Counted from the stretch's first letter, positions 1,376 through 38,571 are shown. The stretch: DNA of 64,000 nt from Cladosporium halotolerans (GCF_011745625.1 NW_027191458.1:434001-498000); one strand, 5' to 3'. The notes: generated by a model from the letters alone, not told the origin. Translations and numbers: made by a program.

Positions 1376-4300
1376 TCAACTCTGCCGTGAAGACGAATTG
1401 GTGGATGAAAGATCGAGGGAATACCTGTCTTGGGTACTCCTTTCGGCTGTGAAAGGTAGCTGAAATCCCGTGACATTGTCGCTGTCATGGTGTGTTTGGT
1501 ACCGTATCACAGACTGTTTGAAAAGAATCTTGTCTGCCGAACCAAGGGTTAGATGGCAATCCTATGAAAGATACGACGCTGGATCTGACTCACCAGCTGC
1601 ACTTCGGAATTGTATTGTGATCACTTTCTCTCGAGATCCCTTCGGACTGTGATGTGCGCCTGAAATTTGGGTGCGCTCTGGTGATGACGCTTGCATCGAG
1701 TTGAGGTGCAGCATCCCCCCTTCCTGGTAGGAAATCAATTTGACACTCGCTTTGCTGTCTCCATAACTCTCGGAAGGGTCTTCTCTTGGGACTAAAGGTG
1801 TAGTCAGCAGGTGTAAACGTCCTCAACGATGTCTAAAGGGGAGGCTTACGTCGACCAGTGATCCAACAAGGCTTCTGTGGCCTTGGGTTTCTCATTCTAA
1901 AAGTCAGTGCAGCAGTTCCACTGCCTTCATGAACCCAGAAAAACAGATCAGCCATGCCGTGGCGATGCGGGAAGGGCTTTCTCTTTACAGAGAGGTCACT
2001 CGTGGTTACACAGTACCACAAAGCCCAGGAGCCGATGCTGTTGAGGAGCTTATACCTGTCTATCTGTCGGTCAATCACACACCCTGCACTGGCGACCGCA
2101 TCTTGAAAGATGCTCATGGGGCGTACGATACCTTCCAGAGAAGTGAAGGTCCAAATCGTATGACATTTCGAGTACTCAGCTGATACGCAACTGCCGTGTC
2201 TAGGTGCTTGGTAGCCGCGAACACCTTGAACGTCGGACTTATAGTCTGCCGCAAGTAGTCCAATCAGATTTAAGCCAGGCTCGAATCTAGAGAATGATCC
2301 CTCGACCTCGGTTCCTAACATCATGTCAATCATCTCAGGTAGCCAGTATATCCGTGAAGTAGAAGCTGCTGCGTCGTCACGTCCTCTAACGAGTAGCCCA
2401 CGTTTCGCGCTACGGTTGTCGATATCCGGGCAATCAAAAGCCTGTACAGTATGGGTCACTCTATCAGGCATGGAATGTCTCATAGCTTCATCGTTCCCTG
2501 TCAATGTCCACGCACTTTGGGCAGGGTACGGAGAAAGATCAATCGGACTGTCCCGGAGGGAGAGCATCCCGTCGCATGGCTGGTTCATCTTCATGGTAAA
2601 TTCCCGAGCATTCTCTACCGACCAGAAATGGATGAGAACAGTATTGTTGGGGTGCGTGCGGGAATACACCCGGGAGTGTAAGGTCGTACCGTCCGCCTTC
2701 TCTTGACTATCGTGGTCACAATCCGACCACGACAGTAGTACGTGAGTGTCTCGTCGTTCTATGGTGATATCGGCAAGAGGTAACCAGAAGTCCAATCCAA
2801 CATAATCGCTGCCAGAGAGCAAAAAGACCAGTCGCCGTGTGGAAAGATAGAGATCGGCTTTTCGAGACTCGTAGAGGTGTAGCACAGAAGTGGCAGCAGC
2901 AAAGGTCCCTTCGGACGGGTTGCCTTGCAGGATTTGCAATGGATTTTCATTGAGCATTGCTTCAAACACTAGTGTGTCTGCAGCGGAGACTCGCCTGTTC
3001 AATGTTGACTCTGATCTTCTGTGAGCAGATTGCACTTGGGATGACGAAGAATCTGTACGTGGCTTCGTCACATAGCCCGAGTCGAGCGAGCCACCAGCTT
3101 TCCGCCACATTTGCGGATGATCCCCTACAGATGGGCCATTGGTAGCAGTACTGTGCTCAGACTTCCATAGTAGATGTGGCTGTCGCTGCTCGCTAATAGG
3201 GAGGCTAAATTGCTGACGCTCTGGTATGGCGGGAGCGGGAGCCTCAATGCAGCACGGTCCAATATGGCCAGATTCTGGATTGACGGCAGCATGGTCTTGG
3301 AAATGCCTCATCAGAGCTTCCGCAGTAGGTCGGCTGCGAGGGTCTCTTTTCATCTGAGGCAGAATTAGAACTGGGCTCACCAGCGGGTCGTCAGCGTGAT
3401 GCAGCATTATAGTTACCATTTGGACCGTCCATTTAGCGGCCTCTGGCAAGCTAGCGTCTTGTGCTATTTGCCCGAGTCGGCTCTGAAATACATCTGAATC
3501 CGCGGCCATCCAGTAGCATATATCTTGCGTGGAACCAGTATTGTTGATTTTCCGACGAACATACTCGAGGAGCTCGTCCACGCTGATGTCAATGAGTACC
3601 GTCAGCATTTCTAAGAACACACAGCCGAGCGACCATACGTCGCATGCTTCGTTTCTTGGTTTCTGGCTGTGGGCCTCTGGCGAGAGGTATCGTGGCGTTC
3701 GGTTGCGTGCTATGCCTTCGGTTTCGGTTGTGTCTTTGAACTCTGCATCCCTAGCAGACCCAAAGTCACAAAACAGTAAGGAGGTTCCGCTGACGATGAT
3801 ATTTTTGGGTTTGACATCTTTGTGCCGAATCAGTACCGAATGTAGCGATGCGAGTCCAGATACCAGACAGCCAAAGGATAGCCGCAGAATCGCTTTGTCC
3901 TCGCTAGAGATTGGCGCGGGCTGAGCCAGCAAGTCATGAAGATTGCGCTCGGCAACGGGCAATAACAACAGGGCAAAGTATATGGAATCGGTGTAACTTG
4001 CCACCAGTTGCACAACATGCGGATTTCCAATTTGCTGAGCCTTCCTTGTCACCTCCACCTCGTTCTTGAAGAGGGCTAAGCGCTGAGTCTGGGACATCGT
4101 GCCTTCGCACGAACGCCGCATGGTCTTGCGCGCGAAAACGCGGCCGGTTTCACTGTCTTGTACACTCTCTACACTCCCAAATGTGCCTCGAGATATCTCT
4201 TTGATGGTCGTGAACGAAGCCTCCACCGAGTTGAAATGCCTCGGAAGCACTTTGTTTGCATGTGTGCCCCCAAAGGGTATCAAATCCGCGCAGTCTTTGA

Positions 4301-4802
4301 CGGCCTCCTGGAGCTGGAGAAGGCGTCGGGAAAAGACGCTTTGCTTCCTGATGATCGGTGGGAGAAGCTCGTGAGTGTATGGAATAGCATAGTCGCTTAG
4401 GCCCGCAGCAAGTAGCTCATCGTGCGCGTATCGTCTGTCGGTCAGGTCTTCTTCACCGCTGCCCGTCGTGATGCGAAGCAACACATATAGCCGGACGTTC
4501 TCGCTCCATGGCTCCGTTCTTTCATCCGATCGTAGTATCCCTTCCAACTTTTCCCAGTCTTTCTCTGAAAGCACGTCGCTCCTGCTGGCATAGTCTTTCT
4601 CAAAAGGCAAGGAGGGCAGTAAGACGCAGATCTTCGCCTCCAAGTGTTCGGCTAGACGCTTTTTGTCTATGTCAGATTAGCACAATGCGCGGCAAAAATA
4701 TCGACGAGTGCGCAATGCCTTGTTGCAGCAAAGAGAGTGCATACCGACCCATCTTATGGATGATGCACTGTCGGAGTATGTGCTGGAGGCCCGCGGGGGC
4801 AT
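1376..4802 (-). CDS. Ser/Thr protein kinase with long uncharacterised C-terminal region (6 exons)
   Basis: Kinase motifs ISRGTFGSV, FARK, HKDVKPKN, CDFG, YLSPE and DVWSLG. By-eye model: ATG 4802 (MPPRASSTY); GT-AG introns 4667-4744, 3354-3416, 2060-2131, 1792-1849 and ~1534-1593 keep the frame open to TGA at 1376-1378. Confidence 0.85.
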
Positions 4803-5269
4803 GTTGCGCCGATGAAAAGTTCAAAGGCCTATACTTGTTCGCATGTTCAAAGCGAAAGTGAAATGGACATAGCTAAGCCCTCAAAGCCGCACAAGGTTGT
4901 CAGTGAAGTTCTACCAGTGATCCGGGTGGCGTGAAATACGAGGCAGCAACACCGCCCCCGATGCCGTGATCTCTCGCATCTGCAGTACCCGGCTCAAGGC
5001 AATCCCCCACGGCGGGAAGAGCATACAGTGCATCTAAGCGAGTCCCGTGAATGATCTTGACACACATGCCGCGTGACCTTACTGGATGCCAATTCCAGGC
5101 TGAGCCGACCAGGCGACCGGTGTGGATGAGGGGTGCATATGGAGTGCATGAACACTCCGAGCATCGCCACGATGGTCTGCATCTGCGGGTTCAGCCTCGT
5201 ACACATAACTATAAGTACGGCGGGCGGGCTGCTTGCGCCTAAGGCTTGTCTTCGGAGTACAAAGGCACC

Positions 5270-7780
5270 ATGGTCTCTCAGAATACGGATCAGTTTTTCG
5301 AGTTTCAGAACCCGTTCGATGAATGGGACGAGGAGGAGGTCAAGGAGAAGGCTCGGGAATTCGCGCGGGGCAACGGGCTTCACAGCTACGAAGATTTCTT
5401 CGTGCGTGGTGGACTACTCAATCTGAACCCGGAGGCATTTCAGAGTATCCGTCAGGATGGCCACAGGCTTTCTCAAGAGGAATGCAATGCTTTGAATGTC
5501 GAGCAATGCCCCAAAAGTGGGTTTGACAGATTTCGCCAGACCAGAGGCCTCTATCTTCTGGTCGCTCTCTGTTCAGCCGCAGCAGCGGGTACGAATCGTG
5601 AATCACGACCGCATCTGCACTGGATTCGCTGACCTGCAGTTTTCAGTCCAAGGATGGGATGAATCAGCTGTCAACGGTGGTGAGTAAGGCCCTCGGTGAA
5701 GCGAAGAACGAGGAGGCTAAGAGACTGACAATACTGTAGCCCAGATATACTATTCGCAGGCTCTATCGATAGGTCCGGATGATGTCAAATTCGGACTCGT
5801 CAACAGCGCCCCATACTTGTTTTGTACTTTTTCTTGTCTACTAACATACCCATTGAACTATCGACTAGGGCGGCGGGGCGCTATTTTCGTCACGTGCTTG
5901 CTCTCTTTCGCATCCTGCCTTGGACAGGCTTTCGTACAATCATGGCAACAGCTGTTTATTGCCCGTCTACTACTTGGCCTCGGAATTGGCCCCAAGAGCG
6001 CGACGGTTCCCATATATTCCGCAGAATGTGCGCCAGCGAAGGTCCGTGGTGCTCTAGTGATGATGTGGCAGGTATGTTCCACCGCAGCTTGGATGGCATT
6101 CAACCAGGGTTACTTATTTTTCCGCCGTAGATGTGGACAGCGTTCGGAATCATGCTTGGATACGCTGCAGGGGCGGTGCTACACGATGTTGCTGGCAGTG
6201 GATCTGAGTTCCAGCCTAAAGATTCAGAAGGCAACCTTAGTCTTAGCCACAGCTGCCCTGACGACTCTGGGGAGTCCAATTTACTTCGTCTGGCTTGTGT
6301 GAGTGAGCTTCTGCTTTGTGTGCCTCACTAATGCTATGATAACTGACAGCAGGTAGAGCTGGAACTGGAGGCTCATGCTGGCTAGTCCGTAAGTTCCATT
6401 CGGAAGCTTAGTCTGGGATATATCTGACTCTTGTCACTTCAGCATGGTATTGCCTTTGATAGTCGCAGCATACGTCTACACTCTCCCGGAAAGTCCAAGA
6501 TGGCTGCTGAATCGTGCCCACAATCACCCTAATGAGCGAAGACGTTACGAGGAAGCCTTCGACTCACTGGTTCGACTCCGTCCCACACGGCTACAAGCCG
6601 CGAGAGACCTTTTTCTCATACATCATGAGCTCCAACAAATTGACTACATTGCCGAATCTTCCAAGAGACCGCTGGCAACACTCTTCACCAATGGCCGGAG
6701 CGCTCGCGCACTGTTTGCCAGCGTAACATGCATGTTCTTCCAGCAGGTAAGTCCTCGCAGGCAAACGAAAACTACCGAAACCGAATCCTCAACCGCTCGA
6801 TCTGTTGGACATGCCTTATGCTCATTGAGTTTGTAGTTCTGCGGTGTCAACGTGATTGCCTATTATAGCACGATAATTCTTCTTCGCGCTGGTTCTCAGC
6901 CTACACCGGCTTTGCTTGGATCTCTCGGATTCGGCGTCATCAATTTCGTTTTTGCGTTTCCGGCTTTTTGGACGATTGACACCTTTGGCAGACGAAGTCT
7001 ACTATTAGCGACTTTCCCTCTAATGGCACTGTGTCATGCCCTGATTGCCATCGCATTTGGGGTCACAAAATCGAACGAGGATAGTCCTCTCAGGATTGGG
7101 CTCACTATTGCGAGCATGTACCTCTTCGGCATCGCGTACAGTCCAGGAGAAGGACCGGTTCCGTTTGTATGACTGGTCCCTCAAAATAGCGGATTCTCGT
7201 TCATCGTCTGACCCGGCTCTCAGGTGTATGCTGCTGAGAGCATGCCGTTATATAATCGTGACATTGGTACGTGTCTGCTCGACTCCAGCTGCATCATGGA
7301 AGTGCTGACAATTCGATGCGCAGGCATGGGCATAGGTGAGTCTTGTCGACCTGAGTACATGAATGACGCGAAAGGCTGAAGCGTTGGCGCCAGTGACATC
7401 CATCAATTGGTTTCTAAATTTCGTGATTGCGATATCTTGGCCACCACTCTTCAAAGCTTTCGATCAGTATGGAGCTTTCATATGGTACGCCGGGTGGTGC
7501 ATTGCTGGCGAGGTGATTATACTCCTGTAAGTACCGTCAAGGCTTTTCGAGCGTGGATTCCTGCTGACCAAAAATAAGCACTGTGCCAGAGACAAAGGGC
7601 TTGACACTCGAGGAGCTCTCGTATGTCTTCCGTGTTTCAACGGCCAGGCATGCTAGACTCGGCATACAGCAAGCCAGAGCTGTAATGCGATGGTGCCTAT
7701 CGCCCAAAAAGAAGCTGAGTGTTCCAGTGTTGGAGAAGCGAGCACCGGGTCCTGATATGGAGATGATGAGACATGGTTAG
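5270..7780 (+). CDS. MFS sugar/polyol (myo-inositol-like) transporter, multi-exon
   Basis: Sugar-porter motifs VQGWDESAVNG, GRRGAI, ARLLLGLGIGPKSATVPIYSAECAP, PESPRWL, IDTFGRRSLLL and PETKGLTLEEL are spread over ~12 exons with GT-AG introns, including a 12-nt microexon at 7324-7335. The start may lie further upstream. Confidence 0.9.
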
Positions 7781-8332
7781 GTCCATCTGATCAGTTTCAT
7801 TCGTTGTCAAGCTGCCCAAAGATGGGATTTGTGTTGTTGTGGCTTTGACCAGCGTATTGCAGCGTCCTTCACTTCTCAGAGAATGAAAGATTCTGCACCG
7901 AATGAGCCAGTGGAATCGTCTGGTGATTGTTGGCTGTGCGTAATTGGTTGCCAGGACTTGGTATATTGGAGCAACCCTAATCTCGCATGCAGGGTACGTC
8001 CGCAGTGGTTAGCTGGGTGAAACTGAAACGAACTGCGTCCACGGTATTTCGTCATCGTATCTTCTGAATATTCGCCGCAGCAGCAGCTGAGAAGATGGAC
8101 CGGTGAATCCTAGACCACTATAGACTAGCCCGTGCTGATCATGCAGACTGCTTGGGCGCAGCCAAGTGGCGCAGCCAGCACTGCCAACTCAGTCATCTGC
8201 AAGTCCTACAAACTGCAGGTACATATTGAGGGTCGTGCTCGGACGGGTAATCAATTCCTCCATCGTAACATTGCGTGTTCATAAATTAGTGCTCTTCCAC
8301 AAGCTCTGATAGCAGCATTACACCTTCCGAAA

Positions 8333-10051
8333 ATGGTGACAGGTCTCGAAACCGCGGCTTCGGCTCTTAGCGTCGTCTCTCTTGCTGCCCAATTGTTCAA
8401 TGGGTGTGTGGAAGGGTACAAGTTGTGCCACAGTGCTCAGAATATAGGCAAAGACGGCGGCAGACTGCACACGAAGCTCCAAGTACAATGGAGTAGGCTC
8501 GTAGCTTGGGCTCGCAAGGCTGGCCTCCCCAACGGTCCATTCAAGCGGCTTCAATGGGACTCAATCATACTTATCCTGGGCCAACAACAAGAGCTCCTCC
8601 GCTCTGCCAAGGCGCTGCATGAGCGGTATCGGCTGAGTATTGGCGATGAGCAGCCGCTGTTGCACAACATTGCTGAGCATCCCTTTTCAGTCGAACCAGA
8701 GGGCTCCAGATATGAGACACCAGACATAGTCGAGAGATTGAAACCACTCTTTCTCAGCACACACAGTATGCGGCAGGATGCAGCCAACAGTATCCGCGAG
8801 CATAACGGCATACTTCGGAGAATGACATGGGCTATTAAAGACAAGGAGAAGCTGGAAAATATCATCTCGGAAATCACAGGTCTGAACAGCCAACTGGTCG
8901 AGTTCCTGAACGACTCCGACAAAGAGGTATTCAGTCATGAGATTAGCACTCTCTACCGAGCCTTAGTCTCGGAGTGTAAGGCCACCGACGAGCTTGATGT
9001 GGTCCGTCAATCGATGCCGCCAGATGCTCCCTCGGCGATACTCGCCGCTGCACATGTTAAAAAGCTACGCCTCGCCCTCAAATTTGCCAGAAGTAGTAGC
9101 GGGCTCTCCATCATGACGGACGGTTCTTCGACTCACGTAGAAGGCTGCAAACATTTTAGAGCGCAAAAGCTGATGGCCAACCTGGAAGAAGAGTCCTACG
9201 GAACGCGAATCACGACTTACAATCAAAGTGTGGTGATGGTGGAGTGGCGGACGATCACGGCCAATTGGGAGGCTGTGAGGGAATCCCTCCGTGATCTCGC
9301 GATGCTTCTTCAGCAAGCGGACGACTCGTCGTTCCACAGCTTGCCCTGTGCAGGATATGTGGATATCCAGGAGTCTGGTCGCTTCGGCTTCGTATACGAT
9401 GTCACGGAGCTGGCCTCGGGTGCTGACGCAACATCTATCTGGAGTCGATCACTGTTTGACCTCATGCCAGGCTGTCGATTCGTCTCTATGGTAGATCGAG
9501 TGCGTATCGCATGTGACATTGCAGAGGCAGTGTTGCAGCTTCACACTGCCGGCTGGCTTCACAAGGGAATTTGCTCAGAGAACGTGGTGTTTGTCGCAGC
9601 TGCAAGGTCGAGCCAAAGGGAGATCCTCACAGGGAGACCGTATCTATTCGGGTACGGGTATGCGAGGCCAGACACAGTCAGCGCCGCAGTCATGACCGAG
9701 ATGCCTGTGACTGCCACCAACCGAGACCTCTACCGACACCCCAATGCCCGCGGCGAAGCGAGGCATTCCTTCCAGACACGCTTTGACATGTACGGTCTCG
9801 CGTGCGTGCTCACCGAATTAGCTCTCTGGAGACGTTTGGAGGAAATCTTGGTCAACTATCGCGCGTCGACGCTACAGCAAAGGCTTCCGTCCTTGAACGA
9901 GCTTTCCAGGGATACCGGTTTCCAGGAGGAGCTCTCATTCCATGTCGGGCCAAAATTTGTAGAAGCTATCGCGTTGTGTCTTGATCACAAGCAAGATGAA
10001 TTAGTGGAGATGCGTGTCCTAGACGCATTGAGATCATGCAGAGAGTCGTGA
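8333..10051 (+). CDS. HeLo (prion-inhibition/propagation) domain fused to a kinase-like (pseudokinase) domain
   Basis: The N-terminus GLETAASALSVVSLAAQLFNGCVEGYK...LQVQWSRLVAWARKAGL and the RRMTWAIKDKEKLENII segment are typical of HeLo. The C-terminal LHTAGWLHKGICSENV, LFGYGYARP, LYRHP and DMYGLACVLTELALW are kinase-fold motifs. Single 572-aa ORF. Confidence 0.85.
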   Translation: MVTGLETAASALSVVSLAAQLFNGCVEGYKLCHSAQNIGKDGGRLHTKLQVQWSRLVAWARKAGLPNGPFKRLQWDSIILILGQQQELLRSAKALHERYRLSIGDEQPLLHNIAEHPFSVEPEGSRYETPDIVERLKPLFLSTHSMRQDAANSIREHNGILRRMTWAIKDKEKLENIISEITGLNSQLVEFLNDSDKEVFSHEISTLYRALVSECKATDELDVVRQSMPPDAPSAILAAAHVKKLRLALKFARSSSGLSIMTDGSSTHVEGCKHFRAQKLMANLEEESYGTRITTYNQSVVMVEWRTITANWEAVRESLRDLAMLLQQADDSSFHSLPCAGYVDIQESGRFGFVYDVTELASGADATSIWSRSLFDLMPGCRFVSMVDRVRIACDIAEAVLQLHTAGWLHKGICSENVVFVAAARSSQREILTGRPYLFGYGYARPDTVSAAVMTEMPVTATNRDLYRHPNARGEARHSFQTRFDMYGLACVLTELALWRRLEEILVNYRASTLQQRLPSLNELSRDTGFQEELSFHVGPKFVEAIALCLDHKQDELVEMRVLDALRSCRES

Positions 10052-10463
10052 CGCTGACATCTATTCCATGTATTTCGGTATCTATAGATCGCTCAGTCAA
10101 TAATGCGAGTTTCGAACGCCCGCCTGACGTGTCCACCGTTCTTCATAGAATGCGTACGTTTGACGCCAATGACATCAGCGGATGATCGACTGAGGGTGGT
10201 TTGACGTCGCATTGCTGTCTGGTGACGAATATTGTTGTTTGTTCATCAAAGGCAAAGCGGTCGCGGTGTTTACATTCCGCGCACACTGAGGTCCATGCTT
10301 TGCCCACTTTTCATTGGTCAAAAAATGTCCGATCTGGGGCCGAGCTTGTCTCAATTTAGCGTTTCAAGGGTCTACGCGTGGCTCGTCCCAAGCTGCCTGT
10401 TGATTCCAGATGCCCCTTGGCACAGCGTTCCTTTGTGCTTCGTAACACAGCATCGCCGCCGTC

Positions 10464-11909
10464 ATGGCTTCGACAATCCATCCGTATCTCACAGAGCCGG
10501 ATATCATAGTCCTACGGAATCTGTTCAACGATGTCAGTCGAGCAGATGATCAGAAAAAGACGGGTGAATCGAAGACAGACCCTAAGAGCGACAAGACCTT
10601 AGGAGAAGACATCGACCATCTCAAGACCGACAGAGGCGCACTGGACCGTCTGAAAGCTTTGAACGATCCGGAGAATTCGCAGTTTCAGCCTACAGTGCTG
10701 GTCACCTGGGACGAAAAAGACATCCATCCTATTATCAATGAGTACCTCATCCGGCCATATGCAAAGGTCGCTTCACGCATTGTCCGCCATCCAGCAGATG
10801 TTGTCTTTTTGACGCATGTTCTTCTCTACACATTTGTCAATCTACCCAGTGCGATCTATCTTTTCTACAATTTTTCGTACCTCCACGGAATTATTCACAC
10901 CGCCTTTACCTTTTGGTGCGCCGGATCTTTCACATTATTAATGCACAACCACATCCACAACAATGGTATCCTGGCAAGAGAATGGGCAATATTTGACTTT
11001 TGCTTTCCTTACGTCCTAGAGCCACTGATGGGCCACACATGGGACTCTTACTATTACCACCACGTAAAGCACCATCACGTCGAAGGCAACGGACCCAACG
11101 ACCTGTCTTCAACGCTTCGATACCAACGTGACGACATCTGGCACTTCCTGCATTACGTCGGCCGATTCCTCTTCCTCATCTGGCTCGATCTCCCGCTGTA
11201 CTTTGTTCGCAAAGGTAACTACAAGCTTGCTCTGCAGTCCGGAGGCTCAGAGTACGCTGCCTACGCCTTCCTCTACTACATGACATTCCACGTCAACGCC
11301 CGTGCATCGACCTCCGTCCTCATCATCCCCTTCATGCTCCTGCGCTTGGGTCTCATGATCGGGAACTGGGGCCAGCACGCCCTCGTTGACGAGTTGGAGC
11401 CGGATTCAGACTACCGGTCCAGCATCACTCTGGTAGACGTACCTGTAAGCTCAATAAGGCCTTAAGAAAACACGCAAAGCCACTAATAGCGTTCACAGAG
11501 TAACCGCTTCTGCTTCAATGACGGCTACCACACCGGCCACCACCTGAACCCGCGCAGACACTGGCGCGATCAGCCCGTGCACTTCATCGAATCCAAGGCC
11601 GCCTACCGCGACGGCCGAGCGCTTGTCTTCCACAATATCGACTACCTGATGATGACATTTAAGCTGATGCAGAAGGACTATATGTACCTTGCTAACTGCC
11701 TCGTGCCCATGGGCGACCAGATTGGCATGTCGCAGCGGGAGCTCGCGGACATGCTGCGCACCAAGACGAGGCGATTCACGGAGGAGGAAATCGAGGCCAA
11801 ATTCAAGAAGCCTGTCTCTGCTGCTGAGCGCAAGAAGGCCGGTGTGCAGAAGCCGCTTGTCGATGAGAAGAAGACCGATGTGGTGACGGAATGCAGGAAC
11901 CGCAAGTAG
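10464..11909 (+). CDS. Membrane fatty-acid desaturase/hydroxylase-family protein
   Basis: His boxes HNHIH, HHVKHHH and GYHTGHH plus transmembrane segments. Intron 11445-11498 joins the two ORFs in frame. Confidence 0.85.
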
Positions 11910-12069: not shown

Positions 12070-13614
12070 TTAGACCAATGCAAAGGCAGAGGAGTTGACC
12101 ACCCTCCTCTTGCCATGACCGTAGGGGAGGTCAGGAAGCATGCCTGTATCAGGGCTTTCAGAAAGGTCGTGCTGAACACTCTCGAATGCCGAGAACATCG
12201 GATCCTGATCGTGGCCTGGCGCCATCGGCACACATTCGTGTCTGTCTTGGAAGCTCTCCTTAACGTCGCCGCCGCTCTCGATCTGTTTGCGAAGCGCATC
12301 CGCTTGCTGCTTGAAAGCTCGCCACAACACGTACTGGTCCAGGCCGTTTCTGCCGTCATGCAATCTCAGCTGTGCGATCTGCAACACGCAGGTGTCATCC
12401 TCGCCGCGAGCCAGCGTGAGCAAAGTCGCTACAAAACACTCCTGCAAGAATGCAAACGAGAAGCCATTGGTGATATGTGCCATAGCCGGACAGAGCTTGT
12501 GCGGGAATTCAATGCTAGGCTTGCCCTTCAGCTTCCTCCGCCAGAACTCGCAGTAGAGCGTGCGCTCGTGCTCGTTGGGGATTGGGAAGATGTACTTCCT
12601 GTCGAACCTGCTGGGCCGCTTGGAGAGGCCAGGATCCAAGCGGTCAAGGAAGTTGGTGGAGGCAACTACGAAAAGACCATCGTTGTTCTCCAGCCCATCC
12701 ATCTCGTTGAAGAAGTAGCTCCGTGTCTGTGGCGTAACGATGGTCTCGATATCCTCAAGCACGAGCATGCACGGCGCCAGCCGGCGGGCCATGGTGAAGA
12801 CGTTGCGGATGTGGTAGTTGGCCGGCGCGTCGCGGACGTACAGCGTCGGGATGGGTTCTTTGCGGTCGAAAAGCAGGGTGTGCATGAGGGCTTTGATGGA
12901 GATGGTCTTTCCGTTGCCTGGCTCGCCGCCAAAGATCAAGCCGCGCTTCCAGGGCACGCCGAGCTCCTCGTAGACGTCTTTCGAGTCGAAGAACTTATCG
13001 ACGACTGAGGTCAGCTCGCTCTTCATTTTCTCGTCCAGGATGACTTTGTCCCAGTTCGCTTTCTGGACGGCAAGCCATAGGTCCCGGCTTCGCTGCCAGT
13101 AGCCGTCGTAGACAAGGACGGTCTCGCTCAGGCCGGAGTTTTGCCACTCCCCAGCGGTCATGATGAGTATGTCTGTGGTCTTTGACGGTCCCAGCGTTGG
13201 TTCTGATGGGTTTCGTTCCTTGAGTACATATTGCACATTACCGACTGTGTACAAGATGAAGTCCTCATTATTCCACTTGTAATGATATTTGGCAAAATGA
13301 ATTTGCTCGCCGAGCTGACCCTTCTTAGATCGAACGACGGGTGCGAGATAGCCCCTCCAGCTTGCGAAGGAGTCGGTCTTTGTGTCCAATTCGCATGTGG
13401 CATTACCAGAAGCTGCGAAAGCACGGAGGTTGACGTTGTTCGCGGGTATAGAAGTCACTATCATGTCCGGATTGGCATCTCGCAATGCAGATACGTATTG
13501 CAGGTCCTGGTCGGCAGTTTTTGCAGAAGACTGATCGACGACATTGTTGAACAGGTGATGCGGGCCTGCATGGCTGTTCTCTTCGATCAAGGTGAAAGGC
13601 TCCTCCTCAGCCAT
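12070..13614 (-). CDS. AAA+ ATPase (single AAA module)
   Basis: Walker A GEPGNGKT, Walker B LVLEDIE, sensor ASTN and second region of homology LDPGLSKRPSRFD. Confidence 0.9.
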   Translation of the reverse strand: MAEEEPFTLIEENSHAGPHHLFNNVVDQSSAKTADQDLQYVSALRDANPDMIVTSIPANNVNLRAFAASGNATCELDTKTDSFASWRGYLAPVVRSKKGQLGEQIHFAKYHYKWNNEDFILYTVGNVQYVLKERNPSEPTLGPSKTTDILIMTAGEWQNSGLSETVLVYDGYWQRSRDLWLAVQKANWDKVILDEKMKSELTSVVDKFFDSKDVYEELGVPWKRGLIFGGEPGNGKTISIKALMHTLLFDRKEPIPTLYVRDAPANYHIRNVFTMARRLAPCMLVLEDIETIVTPQTRSYFFNEMDGLENNDGLFVVASTNFLDRLDPGLSKRPSRFDRKYIFPIPNEHERTLYCEFWRRKLKGKPSIEFPHKLCPAMAHITNGFSFAFLQECFVATLLTLARGEDDTCVLQIAQLRLHDGRNGLDQYVLWRAFKQQADALRKQIESGGDVKESFQDRHECVPMAPGHDQDPMFSAFESVQHDLSESPDTGMLPDLPYGHGKRRVVNSSAFALV

Positions 13615-14048
13615 GCTTGCACGGTGATCTTGAGGAATGAATACCTCGGTATGGACAGTAAGTGATTGTTGACAAAAGGGCTTATCTGAGCAAGGAATGG
13701 TGTCAATTTTCCGCGTTAAATTGTAAGGTAGTGAGCAGAAAAGTGGTAGAAACGAGTGAGGGGCGGTGTTGCCGCCTAGAAGCTAGTGCATCAGTTGTGC
13801 AGATCAGCTACGTAGCTACGCAGTGCTTTGGACTCGGCAGGATTCCCGTCCCGCGAACTATTGATACATACCGTACTATTCATTAAGTCCGCGGAACACA
13901 TGTTGAACATGTAGAAGATGGCGCCTATCGCAGTATTGGTTGAAGGAAGCTTGAACTGTTGAGATGTGAAATTGACTCTTTGATTGCATTGCCATTGTAC
14001 GCATAAATGTTATTTACATCCACAGAAATCACTTTCAGGTGGAGCTCA

Positions 14049-16652
14049 TCACAGACTCCGCGGCTTCTTCCAGATAGGTACTTCCTCGAAATTCCTCGCA
14101 TACCGAAGCTTTCCATTCTCATCGAAATCAGCCGCCTCATCCGTAGACTGAATGCCAACTTCCTCATTCTCCCTAATCTCCTCCTTGGAGACGCCAGCCC
14201 TATCCCTAGGGAACCAAAGCTTCGGCATCTTGGACGTAAAGACAGGGTTCTCGTATGCGCTAGCCAGCTCTTCCTCGGTAGGAGCCGGAGTGTCGTCTTC
14301 GCGATCCGGCGTCGCGAGCCAGCCTTTGACTTGGTCGCGAGAGGACGTGATGAAGGTGTCGAAGAACTCTGACAGACGAGTCGCAGGGCCCTTTCCAAGA
14401 CGCTCCAGTCCGAGCCGGCGGTTGTGAGCTGACATGTGGAGGGCTACCTCGTCGTCTGCGGGGACGCCGTCTTCCTCCGCGAGCAACGGCACTTCGGCAT
14501 CTTGCAGGGTGTCGAGACCTAGGTAGAGCTCCAGAGGGCGCAGTATGCGATCCAAGACAAGGTTGATCAATGCTGTCAAGACCAGCAAGACCACCATCAA
14601 AATAGTCTGGATCAGAGCTTTGCGTGCGCTGAACAATCCGATGAGAGCAAGTTCCGCCAAGTAGATGCCTGTGGGAATCTGCTGCAGAGCGCGCTTGTAG
14701 GCTTCTCCTCGGGTATCAATCTTGCTCAGGCAAACATAAAGCAGGTTGTACCGGTAGCTGAAGTAGTAAAAGGTCAGACCAATAGAGGCAAAAGCAAGCA
14801 CTAATGGCGCAATGCACGAGTAGGCGACCGCGATCACTAGCAGGTTCGTGAACTTGGGATAAAGACTGCCGTAAGAGATACCCTTCATCTGCGAGTAGGA
14901 TGCGAACTTCTCGCGCGGCGTCTTGTCCCAAAAATACTGGTAAAACAGGTACTCAAAGAGGTCTGAGTAGTTCAAAACGTTGCTTGCTGCACTCGTGAGA
15001 CCCTGGATCAGGAAGTACGTCAAATAGAAGTTTGACGCTTTGGGTAGGCTCTCCGCCAACAAGCTCGGAGCCGAGTGTGGTTCTCTCATGATTTTGGAGG
15101 CCACTGCTGCGGCGCCAGAAGAGAAGGTAGTCACAAGAAAGACCTGAGAAACTTGGAAGAAGAACACCCAAGCTTGCGTTTTTAGTTCAGCCTGCGGAGT
15201 AGTCGGTTCGCCAGAGAGTTTCGCAATGTCTACAAACTGATCAGTATTCGCGTGAAAAAAGAAGCCAAATTGCTACTTACGTCGGAAAAGCTTGGGTACG
15301 TATGATACGAACCAGCTGACCAGAAATGGCGGCAAGAGACCGGACACCAGGCCCAGCAGCCAGTCAGGCAAATCTTGGAGGAAGTGAAGCCATTCGTATT
15401 GCTCCGAAAGGTAGCTGATGTTACTGATCGAGCCAATGATTCCGACCGGAATTGAGAAAAATATGGTGAACGCAATCACGAAGATCAAGCCGAGAGATGC
15501 TTTCGATAGTCGCTTTTCCATAGGCAAAGAGAGACTATCCCAGAGGACTTCCTTCGGCAGCACTTCCAAGTATCGGTCTTCGAGCGGTATAGCCGGAGTC
15601 TTGAAGCTCAAGTTCTCGAAAGCTCTGTGCGCTGCTGCTTGGTTAGAGAATGCCACGAACACAGCTGACTGTCCAGGTAGCTTCGAACTAGGCGCAGCAC
15701 GAAGAGCATCAGTTCGCTTGGCGAAATCAACAACAGAGGCTCGGGACTTTTCGATCAAGTCGGATTTCTTCCCAAATAGAGGAGGCTGTCGTGTTGTTGG
15801 TCTCTGCACGCCTGCTGAGGGATGGCCGTTCTCAACTGTCGATGAAGTATTTGACTTTTTACGGGACTGCTTCTCCGCGCGAGCAACGAAGTCGTACTCT
15901 GCAGACTCCAGTAGCATCGCAGCATCGTTGCGCTGCGAGACCACCTTTGATATCTCACTGGTATCCTTCACAGGCCAAGAGCGTTCAGCTTGTCCGCCGA
16001 AGTAGCCTTTCAAGTTCTCAGGAAGAAGTGCTTCAAGAGGCACGTTGAGAAACAGTACGGTTCGCGATGAGAGCTTTTTGGCACGAGATTCCGCCAACAA
16101 GTATGCCTGCCGCGTGCCAATCAAAAGCAGTCGCTCTCTGGCGATCAAGAGTAGTATACCCACGAAGAACACCCATGCAATGACTGTGTGTGCCCATAGA
16201 TGACTGTTCTTGTCGATGTTGCTGAAAGTGATCTTATCCAGCTGCGAAGCATGGCCGCCACCGGTTGCATTGACCGGAATCAGGACGGGAAGTGCGATGC
16301 AGCATCCAAAAATGCAGATGGCAATGGTGAATTTTAGGAACCTCAGGTAGAGGTACGCATCCAGCGAGCTGTGGTTCAACACAAAGCGGGTGGGAAGTTT
16401 GCGGAAATCGTGGAACCATCCTGCGCCTGAAGAATGATGTGCCGGAGTTCGGTCTTTTTCAGGAACTGTGCCTAAGAACGTTCTAGGGGCATAGTGCTTT
16501 TGAAATTTGTTTCTGATCGCCACGAAGATTGCCAGGTATACTAGGGCAGAGACGAGGGTCGGCACAAATGCAGCGAGGATGGCGGCCCCCGAGGTTGATC
16601 CTGAGGAACGGTGACCACCATATCCCCCTCCCCTAGTTTCCAAGATGCTCAT
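14049..16652 (-). CDS. CSC1/OSCA/TMEM63 (DUF221, RSN1-like) calcium-permeable stress-gated channel
   Basis: YAPRTFL, LDAYLYLRFLK, VLIPVNATGGG, FFFQVSQVFLVTT, LPKASNFYLTY, YSCIAPL and YRYNLLYV motifs. Intron 15230-15280 joins the two ORFs. Confidence 0.93.
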
Positions 16653-17253
16653 TGTGATGCTGTCAAGAAGCCTTGATAAATAGCAGCTTCAAGCTTAGCA
16701 ATGTGCTGTCGACGCGCTTCGGGATGCAGTGAAGGTTCAGAGATACATGCTGGTCCGGGAGGGTGCTTCTTCCTCGGGTTTTTGAGAAGACTGCTAATCC
16801 GAACGTAGTAAACACAGAGACGGAAGACCGATGGTGTGCTGCTGCAAATATCAAGGTATCAGAAGAAGGCAGACTCGTTGGACACGCGTGCAGACGTGTG
16901 GATTGTATAAACAGGCTCCTGTCCTGCGATTTGAGCTGGCGCTGGCGCTGGCGCAAGGACGACGTCACTGCCCGCGCTTGCCTCGTCGCCTTCCCCGCGA
17001 GATCGCGCGTCAGCCTGTGAGCAAAGCGACAGTCTGGAGTCTGGAGTTGCGCCCAACTTTGTTTCACTCCATCCTCCGACATCTGAACCCTCGAGTGGTC
17101 CCTGCAGAGATCACAACACCAGCCGAGCAACCTTCACCTACCCCTCCACCTCTACCTTTGCCAGCTCACAGCAAAGAGTCTCTCGGACTCCTCCCGCCGC
17201 ACTGTCCGACAGCTTCTATCACAGCTTTTTTCAACACGCCGCAACCAGCCCAC

Positions 17254-25558: not shown

Positions 25559-26959
25559 TCAAGCAGCGAACCCCAACAGCGCGCTCGCACCCGGCTCGCT
25601 GCAGACATACTTCGTCTCGTGCCTGTCCGTGAAGCCATTGAAGCGAGTCGCCGAGCACTTGGTGTAAGCGCCCATGTCCTCGAAGTACAGCCAGTCGCCG
25701 ACGTCGACGGTCTCGCGGGCGAGCCACTTCTCAGCAATGCAGTCGATGCCGTCGCAGGTGGGGCCCCAGATGGAGTACTCGACGGTCTTGGCGGGGCCGC
25801 TGCCGCCGTCGCTCTCCTCGGCGGAGGCGTAGCCGGAGTCCGCGAGCGAGTCCGTGCTGTAGTTGAAGCCGTCCGGGCGGCGGCGGGTGGACAGGATCTG
25901 CGGGACCGGGTGCTGGTGGTCGAACATGATGCTGCTGAAGTTGCCGTAGACGCCGTCGTTGAGGTACAGCATGTAGCTCTTGGTGGCGAGCGCGGCGTCC
26001 TCGACCGTGCGGCGCGCGATCACGTTGCAGGCGATCGTGAAGGCCGAGGACGTGTAGTAGCGGCCGGGCTCGGCGATGATGCGGACGGAGGGAGGGAAGT
26101 GTTCGTCCAGGGCGGCGGAGAGGACGCCGGCCATGTCGTCGAAGGTCTCGGAGACGAAGCCGCCGCCGACATCGAGGGTGTGCGGGTTGAAGCCGAGGGC
26201 GATGGCCTGGTCGAAAATGCTGCGTGCGTCGGTGACGGCCTTCAGGAAGGCGCTTGGGTCGGATGCACCGGAGCCGACGTGGAACGCAACACCGGCGATG
26301 TTGAGGTCGAGCTTCTTAGCGAGGACCAGAAGTTCCGGAGCGGTGTCCATGTGGGCACCAAACTTCTGGCTCAAGCGGCAGAGACTCTGGGAGTCGTCCG
26401 TGAAGATACGGAGGTAGAGCTCTGCGTCCGGGAAAAGCTCCTTGATCTTGTACAACTCGTCGCTGTTGTCGAAAGTCATCTGCTTGACCCTCTCCTTGGC
26501 GGTGTAACGCAGGTAGCTCTTGGTCTTGCAGGGCTGTGCATAGATAATGCGCGACGGGTCAACGCCGGCATTCAAGACCTGCTCGATCTCAGACTTGCTG
26601 GCGCAATCGAAGCCAGTCCCAAGGGCAGCCAACAGGCGGATGACCATGGGATCCGGGTTGCATTTGACCGCAAAGTGCGGGATGACGCGGTTAAGGTGCT
26701 TCTTCCAGCGCAGGTGCTGGCGGTAGACATCTCCAAGGTCTGCCACGAAGAAAGCGTCCTCGTCTCCCGGCTCGCAGTCATCGGTGTCCACGGCCTGTAC
26801 GTGCTTCTGCAGCGCCGCACCAATCATCTCTTTCGCTAGTTTGACGCCATCCTGCTTGTTCTTCGACCCAGTGTCGCTAGAGACTGGATTGTCCAAATGA
26901 TTGGTCTTCACAGACCAGGGCGCATTGTCAGGGAGGATGTCGATCGCGATAGGTGCCAT
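25559..26959 (-). CDS. SPE1: Ornithine decarboxylase
   Basis: PLP-lysine motif PHFAVKCN, FDCAS, KFGA, FHVGSG, LDVGGGF, AEPGRYY, WGPTCDGID and GAYT...FNGF. Confidence 0.97.
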   Translation of the reverse strand: MAPIAIDILPDNAPWSVKTNHLDNPVSSDTGSKNKQDGVKLAKEMIGAALQKHVQAVDTDDCEPGDEDAFFVADLGDVYRQHLRWKKHLNRVIPHFAVKCNPDPMVIRLLAALGTGFDCASKSEIEQVLNAGVDPSRIIYAQPCKTKSYLRYTAKERVKQMTFDNSDELYKIKELFPDAELYLRIFTDDSQSLCRLSQKFGAHMDTAPELLVLAKKLDLNIAGVAFHVGSGASDPSAFLKAVTDARSIFDQAIALGFNPHTLDVGGGFVSETFDDMAGVLSAALDEHFPPSVRIIAEPGRYYTSSAFTIACNVIARRTVEDAALATKSYMLYLNDGVYGNFSSIMFDHQHPVPQILSTRRRPDGFNYSTDSLADSGYASAEESDGGSGPAKTVEYSIWGPTCDGIDCIAEKWLARETVDVGDWLYFEDMGAYTKCSATRFNGFTDRHETKYVCSEPGASALLGFAA

Positions 26960-27013
26960 TCCCTTAGTACAGGTAATGGGTAAAATTATAGTCCGGATGA
27001 TTGTGTAGGGACG

Positions 27014-29866: not shown

Positions 29867-32103
29867 ATGCCGCCTCGGAGCGACAAGAGTGCGCTCAAGC
29901 GCTCAAGGGTCCGTACTTCGCGATGTACCGTTTTAGGACCGCTCAACTGATACCCATGCCAGGTCTCGATCGACGATGATACAGACGTCAAGAAACCACG
30001 CAGATCAGCGCGCAATGCGCCACAGGAAGAGGAGAACCGTCAGCCAGAACCGCAACCGCAGCAGGACGATGCGAAAGTGAAGCGCAACGGCGCTCTGCCC
30101 TCGCCAGTAACCAAAGGCTCCACGGACACCACGGAAGGAGCCCACGCGCCTTCTTCGCCGGCCGCTAAACCAGCGGTAGAGAGGAAGTCCGACTCACGCA
30201 CAACTCCTGCCACGAGCCCGCCTCCTTCATCGTTACGAGCTAGCGGTCTCTCTTCCCCGCCTTCAGACACGCAACCTTTTTCTCAACTCCTTGCACCACC
30301 ACCATACTCGTACGAAGTCGAAGACGAAGAAGGAGAAGGCGTTTGGGGATACCTTATACCAATCGATGGCGTATCGGATGCCCTTGTTCTGCGCAAGCGG
30401 GCGGCGTGCCCAATACCAGGTAAGGGCATAGGCAGGCCATACGGACAGAAGGAAGTTTCTAAATCGACGTATCTGAACGAAGAAAACGAATACGAGAACA
30501 AGAAAGCGAGCTCCGGCGTTCCTTCCGGCGGGTACTTGATCGGACGTCACCCGGAATGCGATCGCATCATAAACATCGCTACAGTGAGCAATAGACATTG
30601 CCTGTTATTCGCGGAGAACAAGGACGGCAACGCGCTGGCTATGGTTGAGGACTTGAGTGGGAACGGGACATACGTGAACAATGCCTTCATTGGGCGCAAC
30701 AAGCGGCGAGAGCTGCACGACGGAGACGAGGTTTCGATTCTTGACAAGGCGCGCTTTATTTTTCGCTACCCTCGAAGTCGCGATGGCACTGCCTTTCACA
30801 AGCAGTACGAAGTGCAAGGCCAGCTTGGCAAAGGTCACTTCGCTACCGTGTATCTTGCCACTGAGAAGTCTTCCGGCATTCGTTACGCGGTGAAGAAATT
30901 CGAGAAGAGAAGCGGGCCCGGAGAGAGGAGCAAGGTAGAAGGCTTGCAGCAAGAAATTGCGGTGCTCATGGGCGTCAGCCATCCGAACATGCTGTGTCTT
31001 AAGGACACCTTCGATGAGCCTGACGGTGTTTACCTCGTTTTGGAGTTGGCGCCTGAAGGAGAGCTGTTCAACTGGATTGTCATGAAGCAGAAGCTGACGG
31101 AAAGCGAGACGCGGAAGGTCTTTGTCCAGCTCTTCCAGGGCATCAAGTATCTGGTAAGTCATGATCGTCTCGAGTCGACTTAACATTCTATGATACTGAC
31201 TATCTCCAGCATGAGCGCAATATCGTGCATCGCGACATCAAGCCCGAAAACATCCTTGTCATCGACAAAGAGCTGAACGTCAAGCTTGCCGACTTCGGTC
31301 TGGCCAAGATCATCGGCGAAGAGTCTTTCACCACAACCCTCTGCGGGACACCCTCATACGTTGCCCCCGAAATCCTCGAACAGTCAAATCGCCGCCGATA
31401 CACCCGTGCCGTCGACATCTGGAGTCTCGGTGTCGTCCTCTACATCTGCCTCTGCGGCTTCCCTCCCTTCTCCGACGAGCTCTACTCACCCGAGAACCCC
31501 TACACCCTCAGCCAGCAGATCAAAATGGGCCGTTTCGATTACCCCTCACCCTACTGGGACTCAGTCGACGACCCCGCCCTCGACCTCATCGACCGCATGC
31601 TGACCGTCGACGTCGAGAAGCGCATCACGGTCGAAGAATGTCTCCAGCACCCCTGGGTCACGCAGTCCAATATCAGCGTCACCGATAGCACCGATGGCCT
31701 GACCGGCGCGCTCGCGGGCCTCGACTTCACGCGCCGCAAGCCGCAGCGCGAGCGCACCCTGCTCTCTTCCATCAACGACGTCAAGATCGAGAAGGTCATC
31801 ACCACCCAGCCGGACAAGCCGCCCGTCAAGGTCTTCGACAAGCAGGCCGGCCCGCAGTTCCGCCTTCAGCGTGGACCGGGCGAGAAAGCCAGCAAGAACG
31901 GCGACAACAGCAAGACCGTCACCGGTCGTGTCGAGATGACCGTTGAGCCCGACCCGGACGCCGCCAGGGATCCGCAGGAGTTCATGGAGATGGGCGGCAA
32001 AGGCGACGAGGTGCTGTTCGAGAAGAGTGGTAGCGGCAGCGGCAGCATCTACCCGAACGAGACCATCAAGGCCGCGGCGCCCGAGGACGGCGGGCAGAAG
32101 TAG
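29867..32103 (+). CDS. CHK2: Checkpoint kinase 2 (TQ/SQ - FHA - kinase; Neurospora PRD-4-like)
   Basis: DTQPFSQ, then FHA motifs IGRHPECD, SNRH and SGNGTYVN, then kinase motifs GKGHFATV, HRDIKPEN, DFG and TLCGTPSYVAPE. Introns 29909-29962 and 31154-31209. Confidence 0.9.
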
Positions 32104-32831
32104 GCGTGGCGGCTGGCGTTCCGGCGATCAGGCAACGAGTCTTTAAGACAGGCGGGCGTTTGGGTTTTACTGTGGCTCAATGCGGGGCTTTGAGCGCGGG
32201 CGTTGATATGACAGGAAACTTTTCTGATCGGCAGCAATGGGAAAACGGAATTGCTGGCATTGGGTTCTCGGTCGGCTGCGGTGGAATCGCACAGTACATG
32301 GCGCGACGGTCCCGGTGTACATCAGCTTGTCTCGCTACAGACTAAAAGTCCGATTATTTCATGAAACATTGATTCGATTCGCAGTCCAGTCTGGATTGAC
32401 TAATCTTTCTTTCAGATAAAGAGAGGTACTGATCTGTCGCACCATGATCAACCAATCGAGATGGAACTCGGGCATGGAGTACAGCAGCGTGTAAGAGAGA
32501 CAGACATTTGCCCTAATCACATCTAGAGGTTGCCGTTTACATCCAAGGAAATTATCATTATTGTTTTTGTCGTAAAGGCAGGCCCGGCCTGTACGCAGGA
32601 CCCGGAAGTTAAGCGAGCCTGCGCCCAGACCAGGGCATTGCAAAAGTAGGCGGCTGGCAAAACGCCGCTCGCCCCGTGAATCTTCAACCAACCCCATACC
32701 AACATGATAAACTCGGCGTGACTCCACGCATCCAACACAACATGTTGCGGATTTCTGCTCCTGGCAATGTCAGTCGTCCTTTGCGCGTCTCGAGTGCGTC
32801 TGCAGCAGCGACCGGTACCATAAGCGCCCAG

Positions 32832-33938: not shown

Positions 33939-34258
33939 AGTGAGGCGCAAATTGTCTAGCTTCAGGAGATCACGGGTTGCAGCATGAACGACAGCCACGA
34001 CGCGCGGCTCAACCTCATAAGGAAATTGCGACATCGAAGCATTTGGCCTGAAAAGGCATGTCCATTGAAAGCACGACAAGCGATGCAAATGACCCCATGA
34101 CACCCCCGGGCAGAATGCTGCATTGCCGAGAGAGGGGTGTTACACAGAATAGGCTGCAGTGCATAAGCGAGTACACCGGTCAGCCTCGCTCTGGCTTTAT
34201 CAATACGCCGTGCCTGAAGGGAGTCCTGTTTGTTTCAGCTCTAAGTTCCTTTCTGGCC

Positions 34259-37852: not shown

Positions 37853-38571
37853 TGGTGAAATCTGGACGCTCAGGCGACAGCTTAGGTCCGATCGCAGCAC
37901 CCTTGGACCCTCTGTTCGCTGTTGGATGGCCTGTCCTTGGACTACTGATTGTTCGGGTGTGTGGGAAGAAGTGAAATGGTTTTTGCACGAAAGACAGTAT
38001 TTGTTGCACGAAAGTGAGCGAATGTTTGTACGAAAAGGATTGCATAGTACGGGATTGGTGGGGAACAATGATCGTCAGCCTTCAGATGCTTGGTTTTCGA
38101 TAGCCATAGCCCACAATCACACTGAGTTGACTGGTCCTCGCTATTCATGACCATCGTTGAGCTGCTAGCCGTCTCAACCGCCCGCGCCATTGTGCTCGCG
38201 CGAACGTCGAACACCATCGACCGCGTTGTGTATTTCAAAGAGCAAACGCAGCCAGCCTACTCGCACAGTGCTGAAGGCTACATCCTGCAACACCAGAGAC
38301 CGTCATACCTACCCCCGTCACCTTCACATGCCACTTAACTCGTCACATGCTATGCGGCTGGCACGCGCGATATCGCAAGCCTTACTTATAACTTCATTTG
38401 CCGCCAGGAGACTTGCAACCAACATCAACCTCCTCGACCACGTCTCTCGACACGATCATCACGTATCTCAACTAACGTTGGCATTGAAGACGACTACTTT
38501 AAATTATTATTCATTCATCTTACTAATTATCTGCAGCACACCAACTGGCAGACTCCCCGACTCCAGCGACG

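Follow-up and report, generated by a model that had tools for sequence, protein, structure and literature searches.

A serine/threonine kinase gene and a gene for a HeLo domain fused to a catalytically dead kinase fold (a HeLo-pseudokinase) lie, with a major facilitator superfamily (MFS) transporter gene between them, at positions 1376-10051 of a 64,000-nt stretch of the Cladosporium halotolerans genome (GCF_011745625.1 NW_027191458.1:434001-498000; hereafter the window, with positions counted from its first nucleotide). We find that relatives of the kinase and of the HeLo-pseudokinase are encoded by neighbouring genes through deep divergence and rearrangements. Judged by their sequences, two subfamilies of partner kinases map onto the two main HeLo-pseudokinase clades, as expected of genes that diversified together. 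With a probability of roughly 0.55, the block would represent a two-gene regulated-cell-death module of filamentous ascomycetes, in which the kinase activates the HeLo-pseudokinase and the MFS gene is a passenger.

Linkage and co-diversification of kinase and HeLo-pseudokinase genes

Relatives of the window's HeLo-pseudokinase were collected by a scan with an alignment of the family, which returned 58 loci on metagenome contigs. Neighbouring kinases were identified by running a kinase-domain hidden Markov model over six-frame open reading frames (ORFs) at E ≤ 1e-9, with confirmation by Pfam. A true kinase ORF lay no more than 5 kb from the HeLo-pseudokinase gene in 22 of the 58 loci, 21 of them at the above threshold and one added (L042; E 1.1e-9, Pfam Pkinase 3e-13); tblastn with the window's kinase itself hit 9/58 loci. 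Removal of redundancy (the near-identical L030, L035 and L052 were dropped; L037 overlaps L041) left 19 pairs. Most loci without a kinase neighbour are short. A locus counted as informative if one flank or both extended for 3 kb or more; of the 28 such non-redundant loci, 18 had a kinase neighbour, and the nineteenth pair was supplied by L020, with 1.4 kb of flank. The 3′ end of such a kinase gene also lies upstream on the contigs L018 and L001, and Pfam searches of the loci confirmed HeLo plus DUF7580/Pkinase-like genes beside kinases.

Kinase ORFs were concentrated near the HeLo-pseudokinase genes: 22 were found in 282,620 nt within 5 kb, as compared to one in 169,807 nt beyond this distance. 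This corresponds to a ~12-fold higher density; the far rate predicts 1.66 kinase ORFs in the near fraction (Poisson P(≥18) ~3e-13). Fourteen of the 19 non-redundant pairs were divergent (head-to-head), four tandem and one convergent. In an all-against-all comparison of 1042 flank ORFs of at least 100 aa, the two kinase groups described below were the only recurrent families.

Gene order varies around the window's closest counterparts. L009, whose HeLo-pseudokinase is 34% identical to that of the window, has the same order of kinase (−), MFS (+) and HeLo (+), and L003 (63% identical) shows an inversion of the divergent kinase/MFS pair that leaves the three genes together. The flanks of L003 and L009 outside the three genes matched nothing anywhere in the 64-kb window, suggesting that conservation of the block does not extend to its surroundings; likewise, tblastn detected the genes downstream of the window's HeLo gene in 0/58 loci. 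Between loci, adjacency persists at 64-80% amino-acid distance. We also considered that the pseudokinase might be a tandem duplicate of its partner and found no support for this: a pseudokinase profile gave the partner kinases at most 19 bits, below unrelated kinases, which reached up to 45.6 (P0141), so that tandem duplication does not account for the adjacency.

A preliminary description of the window had raised co-occurrence of all three genes and cast the transporter as a possible guarded target or partner. Linkage counts, tree and Mantel tests (below) agree with this for the kinase and the HeLo-pseudokinase, whose homologues are linked at other loci and co-vary, but the transporter does not follow: tblastn detected the MFS gene in the block at only 2/58 loci (L003 and L009), both in the window's own clade, and it is absent from the other 17 non-redundant pairs. 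With its presence restricted in this way, the MFS gene is probably a passenger, and the proposal that it is a guarded target or partner finds no backing here.

Both motif content and blastp clustering divided the partner kinases into two groups, group A with 8 loci including the window's relatives (motifs FGCL..IRHKDIKP.NIL..DFGSA) and group B with 15 loci (motifs GIIHGDVKSENVLVF..AKLADFGFS). Neighbour kinases matched Pfam Pkinase at E 1e-11 to 1e-41, and when the 23 neighbour ORFs were aligned with hmmalign, the rows covering the β3 Lys, H-x-D, Asn, DFG and APE kept them, the motif exceptions being L042 (GFS) and L029 (DFA). C-terminal ankyrin repeats were present in the partner kinases of L017, L022, L027, L028/L030, L029, L031, L034 and L041, and a ZZ finger also in those of L022 and L028/L030; Pfam returned neither a nucleotide-binding oligomerization domain (NOD) nor a protease domain in partner kinases. 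The variable C-terminal domains suggest a resemblance of the partner kinases to sensors. As a separate observation, two kinases occur on the L041 contig, one of A type with ankyrin repeats and one of B type, upstream of a DUF7580-type gene (15-1502, 4278-5471).

To relate partners to phylogeny, a tree was built from 25 HeLo-pseudokinases, namely the window's own and one from each of 24 loci; the remaining 34, short or redundant, were excluded. A split with 98% support in the Shimodaira–Hasegawa-like approximate likelihood ratio test placed all nine B-partnered proteins and L033 on one side and, on the other, all eight A-partnered proteins along with five lacking an informative flank and two lacking a kinase. 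Mapping the label B onto the tree required 2 changes, versus a mean of 7.6 after shuffling (0/500 shuffles as low). Distances between HeLo-pseudokinases and between their partners were correlated (Mantel r 0.62 over 16 pairs, 0/2000 permutations), and remained so within A (0.63, 7/2000) and within B (0.775, 5/2000).

Features of the three genes in the window

Pfam searches and an AlphaFold2 (AF2) model placed the kinase, the MFS gene and the HeLo domain with its dead kinase fold where the preliminary description had located them (Table 1). In the HeLo-pseudokinase, PF14479 scored 108.4 bits (cut-off 23.2 bits; E 5.6e-31; ORF aa 27-217). The N-terminal domain structure of HET-s (2wvo_A) matched at E 1.5e-4, with LFNGCV aligned against LFNNCV, and F22 and C25 of the HeLo domain are nearly invariant in the family. 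Full-length relatives of 589 aa match the protein at 66% identity. Its C-terminal half was barely recognized as Pkinase (E 0.016) or DUF7580 (E 0.021). The AF2 model (predicted local distance difference test (pLDDT) 79.6; predicted template modelling score 0.80) comprised helices at 3-249 and a kinase fold at 270-572. The latter aligned with CRAF, BRAF, IRAK4 and IRAK1 at VIA Z-scores of 20-21 (root-mean-square deviation 3.0-3.5 over 236-258 residues), and Foldseek returned IRAK4, LYR4, BRAF and RIPK1 at E ~3e-6. The best 50 structural matches listed included IRAK4, RAF, IRAK1, MerTK, RIPK1 and TYK2 JH2; MLKL was not among the matches listed.

Table 1 Features of the three-gene block, in window coordinates
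Feature	Position	Strand	Remarks
Three-gene block	1376-10051		kinase (−), MFS (+), HeLo-pseudokinase (+)
Ser/Thr kinase gene, predicted coding sequence	4802-4745, 4651-1850, 1791-1594, 1533-1376	−	1071 aa
Kinase catalytic domain	3303-4211	−	ORF aa 156-458; K184, D287, N292, DFG 304-306
Conserved C-terminal domain of kinase, no fold assigned	1850-2960	−	ankyrin repeats occupy this place in relatives
Divergent intergenic region, kinase/MFS	4803-5269	.	from gene models; same arrangement in L003 and L009
MFS sugar-porter gene, many introns, exon borders approximate	5270-7902	+	Pfam Sugar_tr
HeLo-pseudokinase gene, single exon, 572 aa	8333-10051	+	full-length matches to relatives
HeLo domain	8363-8935	+	hydrophobic N-terminal helix, LFNGCV motif; PF14479
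Pseudokinase domain, aa 270-572	9140-10048	+	Foldseek, VIA structure alignment
Activation segment, aa 440-470	9650-9742	+	T455-E-x-P458 nearly invariant, YRHP 467-470 invariant

Both the HRD and the DFG Asp are replaced by Gly in the window's protein (the latter at G440), and a Gly-rich loop (GxGxxG), sought before β3, was not found. Similar losses recur in relatives. In an alignment of 30 of these, no sequence departs from H404, W408 and H410 of the motif HTAGWLHK, whose K411 is nearly invariant, as is G440 at the DFG-Asp position; Y467-R468-H469-P470 is invariant in place of APE, and T455 and P458 are nearly invariant. Among 16 aligned proteins from the loci, all 15 that span the DFG-Asp position have Gly there, the HRD Asp gives way to G, S, N, A or Q with three exceptions taken up below, and the β3 position is mostly Lys. 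The kinase-fold domain lacks the Mg-binding Asp throughout the family. At the T455 position, 13 of the 16 sequences have Ser/Thr followed by Glu/Asp, the exceptions being L038 (Gly), L048 (Ser-Ser) and L019 (Thr-Gln). Residues 445-462, one of three segments of the model with pLDDT <50, include T455, which we infer to be a candidate phospho-acceptor.

The family is widespread. A word-indexed search retrieved 124 relatives, mostly of 560-650 aa, from Aspergillus, Xylaria, Dothideomycetes, Leotiomycetes and others, named at their source as ‘prion-inhibition and propagation domain-containing protein’ or ‘protein kinase domain-containing protein’. When a profile was run against 1.84 billion cluster representatives (50% identity), 9152 scored at E ≤ 1e-3; of these, 5456 reached E ≤ 1e-10 and 2501 reached E ≤ 1e-30.

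As for the partner kinase, its long ORF (1836-4676, minus strand) matched Pfam Pkinase at E 2.6e-32, and the catalytic motifs described earlier as intact are so: K184 (FARK), D287 (HKD), N292, D304-F305-G306 and P333-E334 were invariant in an alignment of 20 sequences. The apparent stop of the ORF at 1833-1835 falls inside a 58-nt intron (1792-1849). This and a second 3′ intron (1593-1534), both with GT..AG borders and CTRAY branch sites, were placed because the conserved reading frame continues in this manner in L018 and L001; the spliced frame stops at 1378-1376, the very start of the block as first described. P0121, a relative's predicted protein with 96% identity, reads across the 1833-1835 stop in the wrong frame. 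We rejected this read-through as the true frame and take P0121 to be an intron-blind gene call, since L018 and L001 conserve the other frame.

The segment before the kinase domain and a C-terminal region of ~370 aa are both conserved in relatives; Pfam returned no match in the former, and none in the latter even with E relaxed to 10. The C-terminal domain is common to the window, L003, L018 and L009 (36 invariant alignment columns; signature WLPLAD..SWSDCN..RVY.R..PNN.LLIHF..STSR.YWLP). A Protein Atlas search with this part gave no usable match, and AF2 on the domain, with a 4-sequence alignment, gave an unusable model (pLDDT 30.4). Another relative, P0122 (52% identity across the part in common), is longer at its N terminus by ~500 residues, which gave no Pfam match and include a stretch that looks protease-like by eye (GVCGSMVVD..GHIIAG); this extension may be another variable module of this kinase family.

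The core tetrad of the RIP homotypic interaction motif, or RHIM, reads [IV]Q[IVLC]G. It was found in none of the 23 partner kinase ORFs, nor in the spliced window kinase or the HeLo protein. phmmer against the Protein Data Bank yielded 243 matches at E ≤ 1e-10, the best 60 of the 243 being CDK2, NEK1, STK38, PKG, DAPK1, STK17A and CDK4; among the matches listed, CDK2, NEK1 and DAPK1 were the closest solved kinases. By the features compared, the window's kinase does not qualify as a RIPK orthologue, and the kinship with RIPKs implied by the preliminary description is not upheld.

Exons of the MFS gene matched Pfam Sugar_tr at E 2e-23, 2.3e-7 and 2.1e-21, and its start was set at 5270, where the ORF 5243-5632 has its first Met. 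Among solved structures, GLUT1/3, plant STPs (STP10) and XylE are nearest to the transporter. A 1741-nt metatranscriptome contig from run X20 carries the MFS sequence spliced at GT..AG joints; the exon joins from this contig put in-frame stops in the joined model, hence the approximate borders.

Proposed activation and competing explanations

How might the two proteins work together? The partner kinase would act as sensor and activator, engaged through its C-terminal domain. Once engaged, it would phosphorylate the pseudokinase domain, most likely at T455, the conserved Ser/Thr position of the disordered activation segment, and phosphorylation would free the HeLo domain for membrane insertion, so that the cell would be killed or strongly perturbed. 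The logic would be that of RIPK3 acting on MLKL, arrived at independently or from very old common parts; for this pair, it is plausible. A more tentative proposal, to which we would give a little under even odds, is that filamentous ascomycetes possess a large and ancient family of two-gene necroptosis-like modules, in which a sensor kinase with ankyrin/ZZ or other variable C-terminal domains would phosphorylate its co-evolving neighbour, a HeLo-pseudokinase executioner, on the activation loop.

Several points weigh against activation of the HeLo-pseudokinase by its neighbour. Ten of the 28 informative loci have no kinase (L012, L015, L016, L025, L032, L033, L043, L055, L056 and L057). Among these, L032 encodes a bona fide HeLo-pseudokinase without a kinase though its close relative L020 has one. 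Five (L012, L015, L025, L043 and L057) have less than 1.7 kb upstream, the usual side of partner kinases, and L055, L056 and L057 match a short part of the pseudokinase domain only. Linkage was counted from the HeLo-pseudokinase side only, so that A- or B-type kinases located elsewhere do not enter the count. The tree and Mantel signals are inflated by shared species history, because the loci are metagenome contigs. As to catalytic decay, L022, L028 and L048 of the B clade have lost the DFG Asp and kept the HRD Asp (WLHKD), indicating that decay differs in degree between clades, and the β3 Lys is Arg in the window's protein, as it is in its clade. The window's kinase ORF has no Met ahead of the kinase domain; a 5′ exon (ATG at 4802) followed by a 93-nt intron (4744-4652) is predicted, and it stays a prediction, as no acceptor of the right phase was found for the corresponding exon of L003. 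X20, the sole RNA-library run compared, covers the MFS gene alone and says nothing on silence of the kinase and HeLo genes. Lastly, no longer proteins fusing kinase and HeLo-pseudokinase were seen among 8000 scored candidates, which is weak evidence.

An unlikely alternative, albeit the best placed, reverses the sign of the interaction. The kinase would silence the HeLo-pseudokinase by inhibitory phosphorylation or stoichiometric binding, and death would follow when an antagonist inhibits, degrades or hijacks the kinase, as in a guard/guardee or toxin-antidote-like unit. Such a brake explains head-to-head linkage and co-diversification as well as activation does, a lethal executioner gains from a co-inherited brake, and decoy or guarded kinases and pseudokinases are used in animal and plant immunity. 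Ankyrin and ZZ C-terminal domains are, however, more typical of switch-on sensors, and the pseudokinase domain alone could autoinhibit, as a review describes for MLKL.

Less probable again, the two genes may be linked without their products touching, through a shared promoter or as historical synteny, with the kinase acting on other substrates, among which the sugar porter would be a possible target in the window's clade. This view is favoured by the kinase-less informative loci and by the conservation of the divergent kinase/MFS arrangement itself across the window, L003 and L009. It sits poorly with an adjacency that outlasts the amino-acid distances and inversions reported above while surrounding genes are not conserved, with a partner subfamily that follows the HeLo-pseudokinase clade, and with the 17 pairs that do without the transporter.

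We deem it improbable that signalling is non-lethal, the pseudokinase being an allosteric partner or scaffold and HeLo merely tethering the complex to membranes. Pseudokinase-kinase heterodimers are common, which counts in its favour, and so does a preprint on plant MLKLs (10.1101/681015), which reports immunity independent of host cell death; against it, the HET-S-type profile gives the HeLo domain a strong score, and the motif of the N-terminal helix is retained.

Variation within the species bears on a last alternative. Four sequencing runs were compared with the block, and its divergence was taken from three. A single X2 contig covers all 8676 nt with 72 differences (0.8%), and X6 and X8 cover the block at ~1.6-2.7%; no allelic hypervariability was seen in these three runs, and an accessory or patchy distribution within the species, as had been surmised, is not apparent. 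Shares of 31-mers of ~0.5-0.78 in 15 studies fit uniform low divergence. The X6 contig, labelled ‘RNA?’, runs without splicing through the kinase gene and intergenic DNA and therefore looks like DNA. A heterokaryon-incompatibility (het) pair, with kinase and HeLo-pseudokinase as antagonistic alleles or pseudo-alleles, is very improbable: fungal death effectors and their activators are often het loci according to a review, but the three strains or relatives are uniform at 0.8-2.7% with no highly divergent haplotype, and the 31-mer shares are in line with this.

Relation to known systems and the rest of the window

In a review of fungal regulated cell death, RIPK3 is described as phosphorylating the regulatory loop of the MLKL pseudokinase, thereby unleashing the four-helix bundle (4HB). 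The window's pair resembles this system in having an N-terminal helical domain of the HeLo/4HB superfamily, then a pseudokinase with a flexible activation segment, and, by analogy, a separate active Ser/Thr kinase as the proposed trigger. It differs in that the genes are adjacent and co-inherited, that the partner kinase has no RHIM core and is nearest, among the solved kinases listed, to CDK2, NEK1 and DAPK1, and that the nearest folds of the pseudokinase are RAF, IRAK4 and IRAK1.

Closer to home, fungal proteins combining HeLo or HeLo-like (HELL) domains with kinases or pseudokinases have the same architecture as the window's protein, an architecture already in print; the upstream partner kinase, the pairing and the co-diversification are not described in the accessible parts of those publications. 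Fungal two-gene clusters offer further parallels. NWD2/HET-S, PNT1/HELLP and FNT1/HELLF (a NOD-like receptor (NLR) plus a HeLo/HELL protein, with amyloid templating) likewise set a sensor gene beside a membrane-targeting executioner, and the HET-Q2/HET-Q1 protease/gasdermin pairs set an activator gene beside an executioner gene. The sensors of such clusters carry variable repeats (ANK, WD40, TPR), and the partner kinases here are variable too. Unlike in those clusters, the proposed signal is phosphorylation rather than amyloid templating or proteolysis, and, unlike in the NLR clusters, the partner has no NOD domain by Pfam. No prion-forming C-terminal motif was returned by Pfam in the HeLo protein, for which the amyloid motif search covered the RHIM core.

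RIPK4/ANKK1-type kinases have a kinase domain followed by C-terminal ankyrin repeats. The partner kinases of L017, L022, L027, L028, L029, L031, L034 and L041 resemble them, architecture alone being compared, whereas the window's own kinase has no ankyrin repeats. Among plant MLKLs, we know of no conserved neighbouring kinase gene. Wheat Pm13 is reportedly of this MLKL type, with a HeLo-type bundle, a kinase-like domain and a role in immunity. The Arabidopsis-type proteins AtMLKL1-3 also join a HeLo-type N-terminal bundle to a kinase-like domain and have an immunity role, according to the preprint (10.1101/681015).

No mention of a conserved neighbouring kinase for HeLo-pseudokinases was found in the literature covered, a scope that leaves out subscription journals and closed supplements; nor did the accessible parts of PMC12881547, PMC9815663, PMC10197012, PMC4986451 and 10.1101/681015 mention one. 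We therefore count the linkage as new, although papers outside the search could hold it. What the comparisons suggest to be new is the recurring linkage of kinase and HeLo-pseudokinase, as a pair with phosphorylation as the proposed link.

According to a 2025 review of fungal regulated cell death, the relatedness of HeLo/HELL domains to the MLKL four-helix bundle is accepted, the fungal activation routes described are limited to amyloid templating by NLRs and, for gasdermins, proteolysis, and the HeLo/MLKL section closes on the extent to which necroptosis is conserved in fungi. A co-diversifying kinase partner turns this into a question about a concrete, cloneable pair with a candidate site, T455, and with the variable C-terminal domains of the kinases as suggested sensing parts. 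If the pairing is functional, gene neighbourhood could assign activators across a family of at least 2501 clusters (50% identity, E ≤ 1e-30). If the activation proposal is true, a kinase-to-pseudokinase switch, hitherto known from vertebrate RIPK3-MLKL only, exists in fungi, where it is genetically linked and diversifying, and would add to amyloid templating and proteolysis a third principle of activation.

The block had further been set apart by a low GC content at third codon positions (GC3). Its three genes indeed range from 0.50 to 0.59, below the 0.75-0.86 of ornithine decarboxylase, PRP28/DDX23 and SDH2, but an RSN1/CSC1 exon (0.567) and several unannotated ORFs of the window (0.54-0.56) are as low, so this property is not peculiar to the block. 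Three long ORFs of 441, 420 and 710 aa at 32613-35311 (+) and 38527-40656 (+) have a GC3 of 0.54-0.56 and no Pfam match.

Directly 3′ of the HeLo gene, at 10446-11909 (+), lie ORFs of 339 and 139 aa (GC3 0.63 and 0.80) with histidine-rich motifs, hydrophobic stretches and no Pfam match; this gene is linked to HeLo in 0/58 loci. It is followed by an AAA ATPase gene at 12073-13782 (−; Pfam AAA E 1.4e-13). A second, unrelated kinase at 29951-32100 (+) has an FHA domain and then an intron-split Pkinase domain (Rad53/Chk2-like; GC3 of exon 2, 0.82). The region 14052-62383 otherwise consists mostly of core genes, encoding an RSN1/CSC1-type channel (14052-16688), a Ulp1 protease, PRP39, a RING protein, ornithine decarboxylase (25562-27013), a PHP-domain protein, a PNP oxidase, RNase P p29, an M19 dipeptidase, a CCDC90-like protein, DDX23/PRP28 (52422-54917) and SDH2 (60251-60865).

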